NCBI GenBank assembly: GCA_038244815.1
Contig: JBBRTB010000011.1
Location: 37,050 to 101,049, forward strand
DNA from: Thermoanaerobaculia bacterium
GTDB lineage: Bacteria > Acidobacteriota > Thermoanaerobaculia > Gp7-AA8
Direction: 5' to 3'
DNA length: 64,000 nucleotides
Both the position numbers and the translations under genes were made by a program. Below, piece by piece: positions 3,652 through 10,518 of the stretch. Position 1 is the stretch's first letter. Each line of letters opens with the position of its first letter. The notes beneath the pieces were generated by a model that saw only the letters and a program-made list of their open reading frames with translations, was not told where the DNA came from and made no database searches.

Positions 3652-4077
3652 TCACTCGTGCTTGCCGCGCATCGAAGGGCGTTGCTGCTCGATCTCGGCG
3701 CGCAGGCGGCCCCACTGATCGTTGTTGAGCACCGAACGCATGTCCACGAGCATCATCAGCTCGCGATCGAAGAGTCTGCCCTGAGTGTCGCTGAGGCGCG
3801 CGGCCAGTTTGCGCAGGTTTTCGCGATTGAGTTGGGGCTGATCCAGCTCCGCGCGGATGGCGATCGATGTCTTCTCAGCTTCCGCGCGCAGATCGATCAA
3901 CTCGTTCGCGGCCAGGCGGAAGATCATGTCCAGGCGCGTCTGCTGGTCGTTCGTCAGGGCCAGTTGCTCGACGAACTCCGGGCGCCGCCACCACTTGCCG
4001 GGCGGCAGAGGCGCGGCCGTGGCGCTCAGCGCGAGACCCAGCGCGAACAGCGCGCAAAGCACGAACCGTCTGATCAA
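3652..4077 (-). CDS. Periplasmic Spy/CpxP / heavy-metal-sensor-like protein
   Basis: Signal peptide, GKWW, LALTNDQ...VLNNDQW (LTxxQ-like); TTG start overlaps the upstream TGA. Confidence 0.75.
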   Translation of the reverse strand: MIRRFVLCALFALGLALSATAAPLPPGKWWRRPEFVEQLALTNDQQTRLDMIFRLAANELIDLRAEAEKTSIAIRAELDQPQLNRENLRKLAARLSDTQGRLFDRELMMLVDMRSVLNNDQWGRLRAEIEQQRPSMRGKHE

Positions 4078-4571
4078 AGCGATCCGTCTCCGTTCTGCGT
4101 ATCGACCCACGACTCCCACTGCACGACGCCGTGGAACTGCTTGAGCTCATCCGAAGCCCAGGGGTCGATCGGCCCGTGCATCGAGTCGACCGAGGGCGCC
4201 TTCGCCGCTGCCGTGGTCTGCTGGACGGGTGGCGGCGCAGGCGCCGGCGCGGGCTTGAGCTGGTGGTACACGACCGCAGCTCCGAGGACGAATGCCAGCA
4301 CCGCCGCGGCGGCGACGCGCGCGGCCGCGCCGATGCGGGCCACGCGCGCCGGCTGTGCCGCGATTCGCAGCATGATGGCATGCCGCTGGCGGCCCCAGAA
4401 CGTCTCCGGTTTCGACGGGCAGGCGGCCACCTCGCGGAGCTTGCGTTCCAGCCGCTGGTATCGTGCGGCGCAGTCGCTGCAGTCGGCGAGATGCATCATC
4501 ACGGGCATCGATTCGCCAGCCTGCATGTAGTACGTCTCGAGCAGATCGGCTTCACTGAAGTGGGGTTTCAT
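4074..4571 (-). CDS. Zinc-finger anti-sigma factor
   Basis: HLADCSDC (HxxxCxxC), one TM helix, directly downstream of the ECF sigma gene. Confidence 0.85.
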   Translation of the reverse strand: MKPHFSEADLLETYYMQAGESMPVMMHLADCSDCAARYQRLERKLREVAACPSKPETFWGRQRHAIMLRIAAQPARVARIGAAARVAAAAVLAFVLGAAVVYHQLKPAPAPAPPPVQQTTAAAKAPSVDSMHGPIDPWASDELKQFHGVVQWESWVDTQNGDGSL

Positions 4572-5196
4572 GGTCGTTTCCCTGGTCTTTTCGAGCTTTC
4601 CAGACTTCGAGCTCTTTGCGTATTTTACGGATAGCCCGGAAAAGATGTGCGCGCGCCGTTCCGGCGCGGAGGCCGAGATGGCGGGCGATCTCTTCGAGCG
4701 AAAGGTTCTCATAGTGGCGAAGGCGGAAGATCACTTTCTGCTGCGGCGACAGCGTTCGTTCGGCCTGCTCGATGGCCGCGCGCAACTGAACGGAGAATAG
4801 CGCACGCTCCGGATCGGGCCTCATGTCGACGGGCTCGATGATGAATTCTTCCTCGTCACGGTCGTTCATCGTCACCAGACTGACGAAGCGCCGGCGTCGC
4901 AGGGAGTCGCGCGACTTGTTGATGGCGATGCGCGTCAACCAGGTCTCCAGCTCCGAGCGGCCCTGGAACTTGCCGAGGTTCAGGTAGGCTTGTACGAACG
5001 TGTCCTGCGTGACGGTGTCCGCCTCCATCTCGTCGCGCACGATCGCAAACGCGACGCGGAAAATCTTCCGCTGAAAGCGCTCGACGAGTATGCCGTAAGC
5101 TCCGCCGTCGCCCGCGAGCGTCCGGTCGATCAGCTCACGGTCCGACGGTGAATCGCTGGCATCCCCGAAACGAAGAACGGCCAAATTTGCGCTCAC
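4552..5196 (-). CDS. ECF RNA polymerase sigma factor
   Basis: DTVTQDTFVQAY, WLTRIAIN (region 2); LSLEEIA..LGLRAGTARAHLFRA (region 4). Confidence 0.93.
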   Translation of the reverse strand: MSANLAVLRFGDASDSPSDRELIDRTLAGDGGAYGILVERFQRKIFRVAFAIVRDEMEADTVTQDTFVQAYLNLGKFQGRSELETWLTRIAINKSRDSLRRRRFVSLVTMNDRDEEEFIIEPVDMRPDPERALFSVQLRAAIEQAERTLSPQQKVIFRLRHYENLSLEEIARHLGLRAGTARAHLFRAIRKIRKELEVWKARKDQGNDHETPLQ

Positions 5197-5259: not shown

Positions 5260-5307
5260 GGGCCTCGGGCCTCGGGCCTCAGGCCCGGGGCCTGAGGCCC
5301 GAGGCCT
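5260..5307. repeat. Heptamer repeat hairpin overlapping the 3' end of the EamA gene
   Basis: (GGGCCTC)3 ... GAGGCCC GAGGCCT. Confidence 0.85.
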
Positions 5308-6196
5308 GCCGCGAGGCCATCCAGACACCGGCGAAAAGCAGCAACGCGGCGACGGCGACGACGGGCCGGATGTGCTCGTGGAGAAAGGCCCAGGCCAGAA
5401 TCGCGGTGAGAACCGGCTGTACGTACGAGTATGCGGCGACGAGCGAGCTCTCGGCGTAGCGCAACGTCCAGGCCGTGATGACATAGGCGGCCACCGTCGG
5501 GCCGGCGATCACCGCCAGAAGTCCCAGCCACGCGCTGCCGGGGATCTCGGCCCAGTGCTCCCGCCGCAGTGCCGGCGTCGCGATCGGGAGGATGAGGACG
5601 GCGCCGATGGCGAACATTCGGGCGATGACGCGAAGCGGGGAGAGTCGGGAAACCAGCGGTTTCGACAGCACCAGGTAGAGCGCGTACGCGATGCAGTTTC
5701 CGATGATGAGCAGAGATCCCGTCAGGCTGTCGATCAGGCCGGCCAGGCCCTGGGTCCCGACGACGAGCAGCGCGCCTGCGAGCGCGAGCACGATCCCGGC
5801 GATCCTCAGTGGTGTGGCGCGTTCCATGCGCAACCCCAGCGCAACGAGCAGCGTGAAGATCGGAATGGTGGTGATGAGAATCGCCGCCACGTGCGCGCTC
5901 GTGAGCGACAGGCCGGCCAGGAACATCGTCTGATTGAGGACGACGCCGAGAACGGCCAGGCCGGCGATGAACCAGAAGTCCGAGGAGGAGATGCGCCCGG
6001 CTCCTTCGTTGCCGGTCCGGGTGCGTGGTCTCCAGGTCATGGCGTTGAGCACGATCGCTGCGCCGGCGCTTCGCAGGAACGCGAACGAGAGCGGCGCGAA
6101 CGAATGCATGGCCACCTTGGAGATGATGTAGTTGATCGAGAACAGCGCGGCGACCGTGAGCATCGCCGCGTGCACCTTGACGCTGTCAGTCCTCAC
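5279..6196 (-). CDS. DMT/EamA family transporter
   Basis: About 10 hydrophobic segments in two EamA repeats; [18 protein letters not shown]. Confidence 0.9.
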
Positions 6197-9100
6197 ACCA
6201 CACGTCGTGGTATCTCACCGGCGGTGTGACGAGCGACGTGCGCAAGCCGCGGATGTTCGGCTTGTGCAGGACGAAAAGGCGCTCGTGGAAGAGTGGCACA
6301 AGCGGCGCTTCCTGCACCACCCGCGCGTCCAGCTTGCGGTAGATGTCGGCGCGGTCGCGGGAATCCGAGGAGCGGCGGGCCTCCTCGATCTCTGCGTCGA
6401 GATCCGCCCGGTGATAGTTCAGTCCGGGCAAGGCGCTGGAGTGTCTGTGGAAAAAGATGAAGAAGAAATTGTCGGGATCGGGGAAGTCCGCGTACCAGTT
6501 GCCGCAGAAGATGTTCCCGTGGCTCTTGTGAAGCAGCGGCGCGCGTGCGTCGGTGGTGTTGTGCCGCGTCACGTTGACGCGGATGCCGGCCGCGGCCAGA
6601 TCCTCGATGATCAGCGGCACCTGCCTGGAGTGGAAGAACTCGTCCGAGTCCCAGGTGCGGTACTCGACCTCGAATCCATTTTCGTAACCCGCCTTGCGCA
6701 GAAGGCTGCGCGCCCGCTCCGGATCGTGAGCGTAGCCGCGCAGATTGGGGTCATAGCCGATCAGTCCGGGCGGCAGCAGGCCCTCCGCGACGACGCCCAG
6801 GCCACCGAACACCTCGTCGTTGATGTGCCGTCGATTGATCGCATAGTTCACGGCCTGGCGGACCTCGATGCGATCGAACGGTTTCGTCGACGAGTCGTAG
6901 CCGAGGTACGAGGTGTGGAGCTGCACCTGAGTGAGAAGGTAGGGCGCGTATCTCGGATCGCTGCGAAGCTCTCGCACGACAGTGAGCGGAATGCCGTGCG
7001 CGATGTCGAGCTCGCCGCGCAGGAACGCCTCCGCGACATCGCGCGCGGAGCGCAGATCGAGGCGGAACGTGAGCTCGTCGAGCCGCGGCTCGCCGGGGAC
7101 CCAGTAGGTATGGTTACGGACGAGCCGCACGCGCTCGCCTTCCACGACCTCGTCGATGCGGAACGGCCCGGCGCCGGTGGGGCGCAGCCGCATGTGCTCG
7201 AGGTCGTTGGTCTCCTCGCGGGGAACGATCGCGCACTCGTGCATCGAGAGCGTGGAGAGGAAAAAGGCGATGGGTTCACGGAGATGGATATCGACGGTGT
7301 GCTTGTCGACCACGACGATCCCCGTCAGCTCGCGGCTCGTCCCGTTGATCACGGCCTCGGAGCCGCTCACGCTGCGCATGATCCAGCTCGACGGTGATTG
7401 GTTTTCCGGCAGGAGAAGGCGCAGCAGGCTCTCGTACACGTCGCGGGCTTCGACCTCCCGTCCGTTGTGAAAGCGCACGCCGCGGCGAAGGTGGAAGCGG
7501 TAGTGTTGTCCCTGCTCGAGGATTTCCCAGCGCTCGGCCAGCTCGGGCCGCAGCTCTGCGCCTTCGCCGTAAGAGACGAGCTTCTGATGGACGGCCCTGG
7601 CCATGAAGCCGAGTGCCGCGGCGGTCGTGTGGATGGGATCGAATGTGAGTTTCTGCCAGAGGATGGTGGAGGTCACGGCCCGCCCGCCCTGGGTGGGCAC
7701 GGCCATGGTGAAGCGGCCCAGCTCTCCGTTGAGCAGCGTCGATTCATGCGAGAGAGCCGCGGCCATCTGATTGAGGTCGGTCACTCCGAAGCTGGCCTCG
7801 CGCGAGCCGTTCTGGATCACGTTCATGGCCTTGACGATGGCCGCGCTCTCCGCGCCCAGTACGGAGCTCGCTTCGAGCACGGCCTGCACCAGGCCAGCCA
7901 CGTTCTGCATGGCCTCGCTGATGGAGCGGCTGCCTGTTTCCTGCTCGGCCATGGCCCGTTTCAGATGACGGGTGTAGTCGCGAACCATTCCGGCCTGCTC
8001 GCCGACCTTGCGGGCGGTCTGTGACTGCTGCTGCGTGGCGGCGGCGGTCTGCTGGACCATCTTCGTGACTTCCTCGATGGCCGAGGTGGCCGCGGCGCTG
8101 CCGCTGGTCTGCTCGTCGGTGGCGCGGGCGATCTCGGCGATCGAGTTGGTGGAACGGTCCGTCAGCTCGAGGATCTTCTCGAGCACCTGCGAGGCCCGCG
8201 CGGTGAGCTGCACGCCATCGCCCACGCGGTCGGAGCTGAGGGTCATCTGTTCCGACGCTCGCTCGACGCTCCGCTGCACGTTCTGGATCAGCGTGCGGAT
8301 CTCCTCGGTCGAGGTCGAGGTGCGTTCGGCCAGGTCGCGGATCTCGTCGGCGACGACGGCGAATCCTTTGCCGCGCTCGCCGGCCTGGGCGGCGATGATG
8401 GCCGCGTTCAGCGCCAGGAGGTTCGTCTGGCCGGCCACATCGTCGATGACGCGGATGATGTCGCCGATCTCCTGGGAGCGTTCGGCGAGCTCGGCCAGCG
8501 CGTTCTGAGCCTCCTCGACCGACTGCTGGATCTTGCGCATGCCGTCGACCGTGCCGTCCACGGCGTTGCGGCCTTCGTTCGCGGCGTCGGTGACGTAACG
8601 TGCCAGCGCCGCCGACTCTCGCGCCGAACGTCCGATCTCGGAGGTGGTGGCGTTCATCTCCACCATCGAGCTGGCGGTCTGCGTGGCGAACGACGAGAAG
8701 CTCTCGGTGTTCGTGGCCACTTCGCCGATCGACGCGCTCATCTCTTCGAACGCCGTGGCCGTCTCGTCGACGAACTGCGCAAGCGTATCGGCGATGCGCA
8801 TCACTTCCTCGATACTCGCGGACATCTCCAGAATCGACGTCGAGGTGTCGTCCGCGGTCCGCGACAGTTGTTCCATGCTTTCGCGCACGGCGTTGATGGA
8901 CTGGTCGATCTGCGTCACCGACTCCGCCGTCTTCTCCGTGGAGTCGAGCTGGTCGGTGGCGCTGCGCGCCAGGATGCGGGAGCGGGCCGTGATCTGTTCG
9001 CTGACCCGGCTGACGTCGCCGGACAACTGGGTGAAGCGTCCGATGGTGCGATCGAGGTTCGTGACCAGCGCGCGCAACGCCGCCGACATCCTTGTCGAAT

Positions 9101-9407
9101 GCGTGGCCCGCACGATCTCGCGTCCCGACACCGACAGATCTCCCTCCGAGACGCGGTTGAGGAGCGCGATGGCCGACTCGCGTCGGCTGACATCACGGCG
9201 GATGAGATAGTCGAAGACGACGACGCAGAGGATTTCCGAGATCGCGCTGGCAAACAACACCTTCCACCAGATGGAGGCGGTCATGCCCGGGACGATCCAG
9301 ATCGCGACGGAGAAGAGGACGGTGAACGAGACCACCGCCACCCACATCTGCTCCCGCCGCCCGAAGTTTCGCGTGTTCACGGACCTCGCTGACACGGATG
9401 CTACCAT
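6186..9407 (-). CDS. Methyl-accepting chemotaxis protein fused to a C-terminal family-5 solute-binding domain
   Basis: Two TM helices, HAMP-like segment, [37 protein letters not shown]; then [41 protein letters not shown] 9407 chosen because the longer ORF only adds repeat-derived sequence. Confidence 0.9.
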
Positions 9408-9414
9408 CCTTGTC

Positions 9415-9517
9415 GGGTGCTGGGTGCTGGGTGCTGGGTGCTGGGTGCTGGGTTGGTCGATACGACCGAGCACCGAGCACCGAGCACCGAGCACCCAGCA
9501 CCGAGCACCGAGCACCC
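9415..9517. repeat. Inverted heptamer arrays between divergent genes
   Basis: (GGGTGCT)5, central GGTCG-ATA-CGACC, then (CCGAGCA/CCCAGCA)7. Confidence 0.95.
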
Positions 9518-9520
9518 GTC

Positions 9521-10393
9521 ATGGATACGTTCGAGAAGCGCCGAACGCTCATCGATGAGCATCTGCGGAAGATCGCGGCGGAGATTCCCGCGCCGAAGCC
9601 GCTCCTCGAGCCGCTGCGGCGGGCCATCACATCGCCGGGCAAACGCGTGCGGGGAATCCTAACGCTCGCGGTCGGGGAGGCGCTCGGGCGCAAGGCGGAG
9701 ACGTTGCTCGACGCCGCCGCGGCGATGGAAATGATCCACACGTCGTCGCTGATCCTCGACGATCTGCCTTCGATGGACGACGCCGCGATGCGCCGCGGGT
9801 CGCCTGCGCTGCACCGGCAATTCGGCGAGGACCTGGCCATCCTCACCGCGGTGGCACTCCTCAATCACGCCTACGGTCTCGTGGCCGCGAATCATCGAGC
9901 GGTACGGCCGCGAAGATGGGGTGCACACGATGTTGTCCAGCGCGTGGTCGAGGCGGTGGGGTGGGACGGCAGTGTGGCCGGCGAATCGGTCGATCTGCAC
10001 AGCGAGGGATCGATCCTCGACTTCGATACGCTGGAGTTCATTCACTCGCGCAAGACGGGCGCGCTCTTCGTCGCCGCCGCGGCGGTGGGGGCGATGCTGG
10101 CCAATGCGAACGCCGCGACGTTGCACCGCTTCGAGATCTACGCCAAGAATCTGGGACTGGCGTTTCAGATCACCGACGACATCCTCGACGTCACCTCGGA
10201 CGCCGCCCAGCTCGGCAAAGACGTGGGGAAGGACGAGCAGCGTCTGACGTTCGTCAAACTCGCCGGTGTTGAGGGTGCCCGCAAGCTGACGGCGGAGCTG
10301 GTCGACACATCGCTGGCCGCGCTGGCCCCTCTGCGCGCGGCGGCCGATCCGCTGCGTGCGCTGGCTCTTCTGGTGCGCGATCGCGTGCGATGA
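9521..10393 (+). CDS. Polyprenyl (FPP/GGPP) diphosphate synthase
   Basis: GKRVRG, HTSSLILDDLPSMDDAAMRRG, KTGALF, GLAFQITDDILD, GKDVGKD. Confidence 0.93.
   Translation: MDTFEKRRTLIDEHLRKIAAEIPAPKPLLEPLRRAITSPGKRVRGILTLAVGEALGRKAETLLDAAAAMEMIHTSSLILDDLPSMDDAAMRRGSPALHRQFGEDLAILTAVALLNHAYGLVAANHRAVRPRRWGAHDVVQRVVEAVGWDGSVAGESVDLHSEGSILDFDTLEFIHSRKTGALFVAAAAVGAMLANANAATLHRFEIYAKNLGLAFQITDDILDVTSDAAQLGKDVGKDEQRLTFVKLAGVEGARKLTAELVDTSLAALAPLRAAADPLRALALLVRDRVR

Positions 10394-10442: not shown

Positions 10443-10518
<76 letters not shown>

Follow-up and report, generated by a model that had tools for sequence, protein, structure and literature searches.

Chemoreceptors of the methyl-accepting chemotaxis protein (MCP) type can carry a sensor domain at the C-terminus, as in DcrH, which has a hemerythrin domain, and TlpD, which has a CZB domain. 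Those that read the cell interior are few, and the signal has not been established for most of them. In this study, we analysed a gene for an MCP with a solute-binding protein (SBP) domain of family 5 (SBP_bac_5, PF00496) at its C-terminus, located in a 64-kb window (the whole stretch of DNA analysed; contig C11, positions 37050–101049) of a genome of the class Thermoanaerobaculia, phylum Acidobacteriota. The design itself is already catalogued. Supplementary Fig. 2 of Ortega & Krell 2020 (PMC7390727) includes ‘Solute binding protein 5 (Pf00496)’ among the principal domains C-terminal to MCPsignal, in fifth place after CZB, PilZ, hemerythrin and sCache2, and the main text of that paper treats CZB alone of these C-terminal domains. 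A preliminary description of the locus, made from the DNA letters, had treated the design as unreported and was wrong in this respect. A study of the ligand, structure, phenotype or function of an MCP–SBP_bac_5 fusion was not found in the searchable literature, with subscription journals and bioRxiv supplements outside its reach.

Three further systems are close to this receptor. Reviews on SBPs in signalling (including PMC8050422) treat SBPs, in their accessible sections, as extracytosolic partners that act in trans, and the pairing of the dipeptide-binding protein DppA with the chemoreceptor Tap is tabulated in PMC8050422. The SgrR/DsvR transcription factors combine a helix–turn–helix (HTH) domain with a cytoplasmic SBP_bac_5 domain, according to the accessible part of bioRxiv 10.64898/2026.04.01.715812. 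The third is MeAmi_SBP of Mesorhizobium (structure 8UPI), which the accessible part of bioRxiv 10.1101/2024.02.22.581678 describes as a periplasmic binder of L-amino-acid amides.

Architecture and topology of the fusion receptor

The fusion gene and the segments of its product are as follows; residue numbers refer to the 1073-aa form.

6186..9407, minus strand: MCP–SBP_bac_5 fusion gene, 1073 aa plus stop codon 6186–6188 (open reading frame; Pfam MCPsignal and SBP_bac_5; AlphaFold model of the whole protein)
9285..9347, minus strand: transmembrane (TM) helix 1, residues 21–41 (hydropathy peak 2.37; helical in the model)
9201..9272, minus strand: TM helix 2, residues 46–69 (hydropathy peak 2.07)
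9033..9200, minus strand: HAMP-like segment, approximately residues 70–125 (alignment with the HAMP-bearing paralogue on contig C21; helix–connector–helix in the model)
7719..9032, minus strand: MCP signalling hairpin, residues 126–563 (Pfam MCPsignal; tip position; model helices)
7683..7718, minus strand: short linker of 12 residues, 564–575, from the last MCP helix to the SBP domain (secondary structure of the model)
6189..7682, minus strand: complete cytoplasmic SBP_bac_5 domain, residues 576–1073 (Pfam; matches to 8UPI and DppA; Foldseek; model confidence)

The gene is a single stop-free frame of 1073 codons running from ATG 9407 down to 6186 on the minus strand, as had been stated in the preliminary description. 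Upstream of ATG 9407, the frame is still open as far as GTG 9515. Because the homologues share the motif FGRxxQxW ahead of TM helix 1, ATG 9407 or a codon close to it is favoured as the start over the M21 chosen by the gene caller.

Pfam matched MCPsignal with an E-value (E) of 2.3e-45 and SBP_bac_5 with E 3e-78, the latter over profile positions 1–363 of 368 (residues 618–988). Hydropathy analysis (Kyte–Doolittle, 19-aa window) gave two hydrophobic segments only, at residues 21–41 and 46–69, separated by a loop of approximately four residues (38–43 in the AlphaFold model). These agree with the two closely spaced TM helices and nearly absent periplasmic part that had been claimed at the outset. 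Beyond residue 90, the top hydropathy value was 1.46, within the SBP core; the scan detected no TM helix between the MCP and SBP parts, no other hydrophobic segment at residues 70–1073 and no signal peptide before the SBP domain. Since no TM helix precedes it, the SBP domain is placed in the cytoplasm, not outside the membrane. The TM pair is flanked by arginines on both sides (R8, R13, R17 and R18 ahead of TM helix 1; RRDVSRRE behind TM helix 2), which indicates that both protein ends are cytoplasmic.

The AlphaFold2 model, for which 28 sequences were aligned, had a mean predicted local distance difference test (pLDDT) value of 80.4. Its hairpin consists of long helices at 105–341, two of which lead to the tip, and at 343–563, where two run back, with the tip motif ERGKGF at E344 (nt 8376–8378). 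The two arms of approximately 237 and 221 residues match in length and run antiparallel, as expected of MCPs (PF00015), and the low-confidence breaks at 198–223 and 466–490 lie symmetrically in them. A total of approximately 62–64 heptads corresponds to the size range of the longest class of MCPs. The MCP part also contains Glu/Gln pairs, among them SIEEV and TDEQT. Residues 46–567 share 37 % identity with the only other MCP of the genome, in which a HAMP domain was called at E 8e-14, and the model forms a helix–connector–helix at 44–87/88–94/95–102; this alignment and the model together bear out the HAMP-like region of the preliminary description.

Behind the hairpin, helix 481–563 of the model is followed from residue 576 at high pLDDT by the SBP domain, a compact alpha/beta fold that extends to the end of the protein, with values mostly of 85–97. 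The linker between them (564–575) is the junction that had earlier been put near 7700, and its mean identity among 117 close homologues is 52 %. As the link to the last hairpin helix measures only approximately 12 residues, the SBP domain should sit beside the HAMP region under the membrane. The long hairpin and the complete SBP domain noted beforehand were thus recovered both as Pfam matches and in the model. We conclude, with high confidence as to architecture, that the protein is a bona fide methyl-accepting chemoreceptor without a periplasmic sensor, in which the TM pair is only a membrane anchor.

Conservation and distribution of the fusion

The preliminary description had allowed for homologues that are always split. 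Instead, all 120 best homologues (68–100 % identity, 896–1402 aa) carry both PF00015 and PF00496, and 117 of them measure 1040–1100 aa; the source names on their database entries are Thermoanaerobaculia, Acidobacteriota and one ‘Deltaproteobacteria’ metagenome-assembled genome. A search of 1.84 billion cluster representatives added approximately 28 clusters at 50 % identity (1010–1073 aa, down to 22–24 % identity), each aligning as one stretch over nearly the whole protein, and both domains were detected by Pfam in 27/27 distant full-length representatives scanned (22–49 % identity). Among the 117 close homologues, mean identity was 68 % for the SBP domain, 76–79 % for the MCP arms, 86 % for the tip, 60 % for the HAMP-like segment and 33 % for the TM region. 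These values suggest that the SBP domain is clearly under constraint.

In the class sample, the fusion was found in 61 of 201 genomes, while five further genomes matched only one domain. The window's own family (f1) has it in 48/48 sampled genomes beside the window's genome; three genomes flagged as unpublished (G131, G171 and G175) are counted in the family tallies. In the phylum sample, a near-full-length single-frame copy was present in 54 of 401 genomes, 44 of the 54 lying outside the class.

These data bear on the reading that the MCP and SBP genes were joined by a sequencing error, or that the SBP domain is exported by an unrecognized route. No point in its favour was found, the nearest being that the gene is fragmented in five of the 49 f1 genomes, in each case across separate contigs or by the end of a contig. 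In contrast, the same single frame recurs in hundreds of independent assemblies, and neither a signal peptide nor a TM helix precedes the SBP domain, whereas 15/15 full-length stand-alone relatives have signal-like N-termini. We therefore give this reading a negligible probability. Judged from the assemblies compared, the fusion is conserved and is no assembly artefact. In the sequencing-run search, three DNA runs contained the stretch, all from a single study and one of them perhaps the source of this DNA, and hence give no independent support; no RNA run containing it was found.

Pocket of the SBP domain

By sequence, the closest solved structure to the SBP domain is 8UPI (E 2.4e-76, approximately 32 % identity), followed by Escherichia coli DppA (1DPP, E 4.5e-52) and then GbpA, HbpA and GsiB. 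A Foldseek search with the model also gave 8UPI as the best match, with a template modelling score (TM-score, normalized to the target) of 0.88 and a root-mean-square deviation of 2.7 Å, and scores to target of 0.81–0.88 for 8UPI, DppA, GbpA and OppA. The family-5 profile and the complete bilobed fold are thus both present. The model fits the liganded closed structures 8UPI and 1DPP (0.85–0.88) better than the open DppA structure 1DPE (0.66).

In MeAmi_SBP, Asp413 forms a salt bridge to the amine of the ligand, Trp410 and Asp413 are common to DppA and GbpA, and the pocket is narrowed by Tyr32, Trp34, Trp435 and an insertion at Met408 (accessible part of bioRxiv 10.1101/2024.02.22.581678). Alignment to 8UPI placed the equivalent of this amine clamp near the end of the fusion receptor:

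6486..6497, minus strand: codons of W971-Y-A-D974, equivalent to the 8UPI amine clamp W410/D413 (HMMER alignment to 8UPI)

Both W971 and D974 are invariant in 28/28 clusters of the MCP family. Because this DppA-type Trp/Asp clamp is invariant, an internal amino-compound or peptide-like ligand appears plausible. The preliminary description had proposed intracellular sensing of a peptide-like or other ligand; the cytoplasmic position of the site stood, while for the peptide-like or amino nature of the ligand the clamp gives plausibility.

Chemosensory pathway of the genome

The genome (4.48 Mb, 63 contigs, 98.4 % complete) contains only two MCP genes, namely, the fusion receptor and a 690-aa MCP on contig C21 that is followed by a CheW gene, with PilB- and PilT-like ATPases nearby. 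One CheA, two CheW genes, CheR and CheB are also encoded, which are the cognate components expected for an MCP. As the preliminary description stated, the window has no che genes: it contains no match to CheW, CheR, CheB or a further MCP, and the CheA cluster lies on contig C5 (156–166 kb). This cluster consists of genes for a DUF4388-receiver protein, CheA, an AAA_22 ATPase, CheW, a receiver protein, a HEAT-repeat protein (741 aa), CheR, CheB and a GAF protein. In the class sample, 59 of the 60 other genomes with the fusion had a CheA dimerization domain, the sole miss being an 82 % complete genome, compared with 102/201 overall.

No flagellin match was detected in this 98.4 % complete genome, and the output of the pathway is therefore likely to be non-flagellar; as type IV pilus ATPases are present, it may be pilus-based movement or another cellular function. 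The DUF4388-receiver, AAA_22, receiver, HEAT-repeat and GAF proteins of the CheA cluster also point to a non-motility or pilus-type output. The HEAT-repeat gene is reminiscent of the Che7 system of Myxococcus, a likeness that a literature search did not confirm. Outside the window, at 131.4–135.8 kb of C11 and away from any MCP, we observed an 867-aa open frame with CheB methylesterase and CheR methyltransferase domains, which appears to be a fused CheB–CheR protein. A further CheR–CheB pair is located on contig C32.

Proposed mode of signalling

We propose that the input module of the receptor is the complete family-5 Venus-flytrap domain at its cytoplasmic C-terminus. A small molecule of the cytoplasm that bears a free amino group, such as an amino-acid derivative or a short peptide, would bind between the two lobes through Trp971 and Asp974. 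The short linker would relay closure of the lobes to that end of the four-helix bundle which lies nearest the membrane, and the relayed signal would alter the activity of the single CheA of the genome, with pilus-based movement or another cellular function, and not flagellar swimming, as the output. Ligand-driven signalling by a cytoplasmic SBP sensor is, taken as a whole, the explanation that we find reasonably probable. The present data show the architecture, topology, fold and conservation of the receptor, its conserved clamp and its occurrence together with CheA; the parts concerning ligand binding, ligand class, coupling mechanism and output are those that we infer.

Several observations weigh against this proposal. 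The residues that confer specificity in 8UPI are lost (Y32 is replaced by T595, W34 by A597 and W435 by L996), the Met408 insertion corresponds to a 2-residue deletion, and the Ca2+ site D45/D49 is changed to Q/S. DppA Arg355, presumably the residue that holds the peptide carboxylate, aligns with E923. The columns of T595, A597, L996 and E923 vary across the receptor family. The clamp is also general among periplasmic stand-alone relatives (Trp in 15/15, Asp in 14/15), which suggests that it represents a retained amine-binding pocket and no new specificity. The ligand of the SBP domain cannot be deduced from the pocket comparison, and the domain could work by protein contacts instead of ligand binding. 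In addition, Pfam gave no match to a HAMP domain in the receptor, and no metabolic or transport gene is linked consistently to the fusion across classes.

Relatives of the SBP domain in other signalling proteins

The search of cluster representatives showed that this SBP subgroup is also fused to soluble MCPs of approximately 820 aa and double-hairpin MCPs of approximately 1100 aa, and occurs in MCPs with two SBP domains. The same subgroup was found on Pkinase–AAA_16 proteins (approximately 1900 aa, two SBP domains), AAA_16 proteins (two) and a BTAD–AAA_16 protein (four), kinds that are also present in the class and phylum samples. These large cytoplasmic STAND-type proteins include the database entries P0156, P0153 and P0142 and open frames in the genomes G017, G088, G112, G180, G209, G253 and G004. 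In the literature searched, we found no description of STAND-type proteins with two to four C-terminal SBP_bac_5 domains.

A tree of 94 SBP domains, drawn from the top 150 matches to the fusion receptor, was built by quick maximum likelihood (LG+G4) with Shimodaira–Hasegawa-like approximate likelihood-ratio (SH-aLRT) support only, and was rooted on the two ordinary SBP5 proteins of the genome, the root being an assumption. All 28 MCP-family domains fell into one clade of 58 rows (SH-aLRT 99) together with the STAND, AAA_16, BTAD and tandem-SBP domains, and none of the 15 stand-alone relatives that bear a signal peptide belongs to this clade. The soluble MCP–SBP5 forms made up a second clade of 19 rows (support 99), beside six stand-alone SBPs. 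Each of the 15 stand-alone relatives with a complete N-terminus starts with a signal-peptide or lipoprotein-like sequence; P0241 lacks its N-terminus. The fusion receptor does not share the extracytoplasmic location of SBP_bac_5 proteins, nor does an ABC (ATP-binding cassette) permease or ATPase gene adjoin it, as would be expected of an SBP serving an importer.

The tandem arrangement is relevant to a reading in which the SBP domain serves protein interaction or scaffolding in place of small-molecule sensing and so tunes or localizes the receptor, using the surfaces that periplasmic SBPs show to permeases. Candidate docking partners would be the inner face of a transporter, the receptor's own HAMP region or a Che component. 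Such a role would suit the tandem copies (2–4) of related SBP5 domains in STAND kinases and regulators, some of which lack the clamp Asp: it is kept in 8/12 kinase copies and in 2/4 copies of the two-SBP MCPs. It would also suit the loss of the specificity residues of the nearest characterized binders. However, the invariance of the clamp in the MCP family (28/28) and the better fit of the model to liganded closed structures than to open 1DPE speak against this reading, and we regard a scaffold role as unlikely.

Neighbouring genes

The genes and the element around the fusion gene are the following.

5279..6196, minus strand: EamA-family transporter gene directly downstream of the fusion gene, start GTG 6196 or GTG 6175 (Pfam EamA, E 2.4e-41)
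9521..10393, plus strand: divergent short-chain polyprenyl diphosphate synthase of the farnesyl/geranylgeranyl diphosphate (FPP/GGPP) type (Pfam polyprenyl_synt)
9415..9516, no strand assigned: imperfect inverted repeat of two heptamer arrays (Tandem Repeats Finder; RNA fold)
4552–5196, minus strand: extracytoplasmic function (ECF) sigma factor, after the EamA gene
4074–4712, minus strand: putative anti-sigma protein without a Pfam match, after the EamA gene
3652–4119, minus strand: Metal_resist (Spy/CpxP-like) protein, after the EamA gene

The stop codon of the fusion gene (6186–6188) overlaps the earliest EamA start, GTG 6196, by 11 nt, in agreement with the overlap reported in the preliminary description; with GTG 6175 as the start, 10 nt would separate the two genes. 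From this arrangement, the preliminary description had derived a sensor–exporter pair, in which the receptor would monitor the cytoplasmic substrate of EamA and the two genes would be translationally coupled. For comparison, 46 class loci were taken from other genomes; the flanks measured 1.5 kb in 29 of them and up to 6 kb in the remaining 17, and the genome of one locus, L103, is unpublished. In 18 loci, an EamA gene followed the fusion gene on the same strand (one a remnant), with gaps of 8–21 nt in six of these, and the database entry P0063 (1402 aa) runs MCP, SBP and EamA together into one protein, all of which is in line with such a pair. Against it, EamA was inverted in 8/46 loci and not found in 20/46, and it was absent from all 10 class loci with 31–38 % identity (0/10) and from all 20 loci of other classes. 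With synteny this patchy, the pairing appears to be only a local arrangement; the EamA linkage did not hold up when checked for conservation, and the sensor–exporter pair is, by gene order, largely refuted and quite improbable. The abutting transporter could also be counted as a docking partner for an SBP domain with a scaffold role, but the same loci offer no conserved partner gene of that kind.

The best-kept neighbour in the class is the divergent synthase (249.9 bits with the NCBIfam FPPsyn model, under its 275-bit cut-off), which was found in 42/46 loci, two of the four misses being contig ends, and in 9/10 of the loci at 31–38 % identity. In three of the distant loci (L132–L134), the other scanned neighbours differ. 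The receptor and the synthase might accordingly share a control region, the receptor reporting on an isoprenoid-related or envelope-precursor pool. We consider this coupling highly improbable, as the synthase was found within approximately 4 kb in 0/20 loci of other classes, the pocket resembles those of amino-group binders and not of lipid or diphosphate binders, and the genome encodes two further polyprenyl synthases. The retention within the class and the absence outside it point to class-level synteny, and the synthase was rejected as a universal partner. A link through the SBP5 gene on contig C9, which lies near another polyprenyl synthase, was dismissed; this gene adjoins a BPD_transp_1 permease and belongs to an ordinary ABC transporter.

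In the 20 loci of other classes, neither the synthase nor EamA nor the sigma factor was found within approximately 4 kb, and all keep the fusion. Eight of them were scanned with Pfam and had no shared partner; the neighbours include alanine dehydrogenase with acetyl-CoA hydrolase, M3 or M20 peptidases and a GGDEF–EAL protein. The fusion gene thus behaves as an orphan receptor. In two loci of another class (L156 in G377 and L163 in G516), genes for alanine dehydrogenase and acetyl-CoA hydrolase/transferase precede the receptor gene on the same strand; an M3-type oligopeptidase gene follows it in L156, and an M20 peptidase gene is nearby in L162 (G338, of a different family, f47). These neighbours hint faintly at a connection with the metabolism of amino acids or peptides.

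The arrays of the inverted repeat, GGGTGCT (5.6 copies) and ACCGAGC (7.4 copies), nearly fill the 113-nt gap that separates the start codons of the divergent receptor and synthase genes, and fold into a hairpin that is long but imperfect (‒89.2 kcal/mol, z-score ‒10.1). As similar heptamer arrays are dispersed at 38 genome loci, several of them at contig ends, the element looks REP-like (repetitive extragenic palindromic). Within the class, it is only in the closer relatives that the trio of sigma factor, anti-sigma and Spy/CpxP-like genes follows the receptor gene. A tRNA-Phe (GAA) gene (10443–10518, plus strand) directly follows the synthase gene.

Comparison with known systems

What this analysis adds to the catalogued design is its distribution across the phylum, the retention of the amine clamp, the relationship to SBP5 domains of STAND kinases and the context of a non-flagellar pathway. 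Acidobacteriota are a major phylum of soils and sediments in which this receptor family is common; the sensor of the family is compact and well folded, could be expressed alone and has the pocket signature of amino-group binders. These features make the family tractable for finding the ligand of a cytoplasmic SBP5 domain and for learning what feeds the non-flagellar Che pathways of the phylum; given that large STAND kinases carry the same module, a ligand found for the receptor may explain these proteins too. More tentatively, one family-5 lineage may have moved into the cytoplasm as a portable sensor of MCPs, STAND kinases and SARP-like regulators, and may in many Acidobacteriota form one of two inputs to a non-flagellar pathway that steers pili or development by an internal amino compound, a view that we put forward as possible and somewhat doubtful. 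If it is true, the cell would steer by an internal amino compound (a peptide, an amino-acid amide or similar) and not by an outside chemical.

Catalogued MCPs with a C-terminal sensor resemble the fusion receptor in that the sensor stands behind the MCPsignal hairpin, and hence is cytoplasmic and membrane-proximal, and the list includes the same domain pair. In the DppA–Tap system of E. coli, a DppA-type family-5 binding protein likewise feeds a chemoreceptor. However, DppA is a free periplasmic protein that works for an ABC importer and signals in trans to the periplasmic domain of Tap, whereas the SBP domain described here is covalently fused, cytoplasmic, without a signal peptide and without an adjacent permease. 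MeAmi_SBP is the best match in both sequence and fold, and its clamp W410/D413 is kept in the fusion receptor; in contrast, it is periplasmic and transporter-linked, and its Y32, W34, W435, Met408 insertion and Ca2+ site have been lost.

The SgrR/DsvR proteins provide the precedent for a family-5 SBP acting as a cytoplasmic sensor, but their output is DNA binding, while that of the fusion receptor is an MCP. Pfam gave no match to an HTH domain in the receptor, and the NCBIfam SgrR model matched residues 602–752 only, scoring 51.9 bits where its cut-off is 476 bits, a match much weaker than those of the DppA or GsiB models. This weak match suggests that the SBP domain was recruited separately in the receptor and in SgrR. 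The soluble single- and double-hairpin MCP–SBP5 proteins share the MCP output but have no membrane anchor, and their SBP domains form a clade separate from that of the fusion receptor. Conversely, the STAND kinases and AAA_16/BTAD regulators, which also lack a membrane anchor and have other output modules, carry SBP domains that belong to one clade with that of the fusion receptor.

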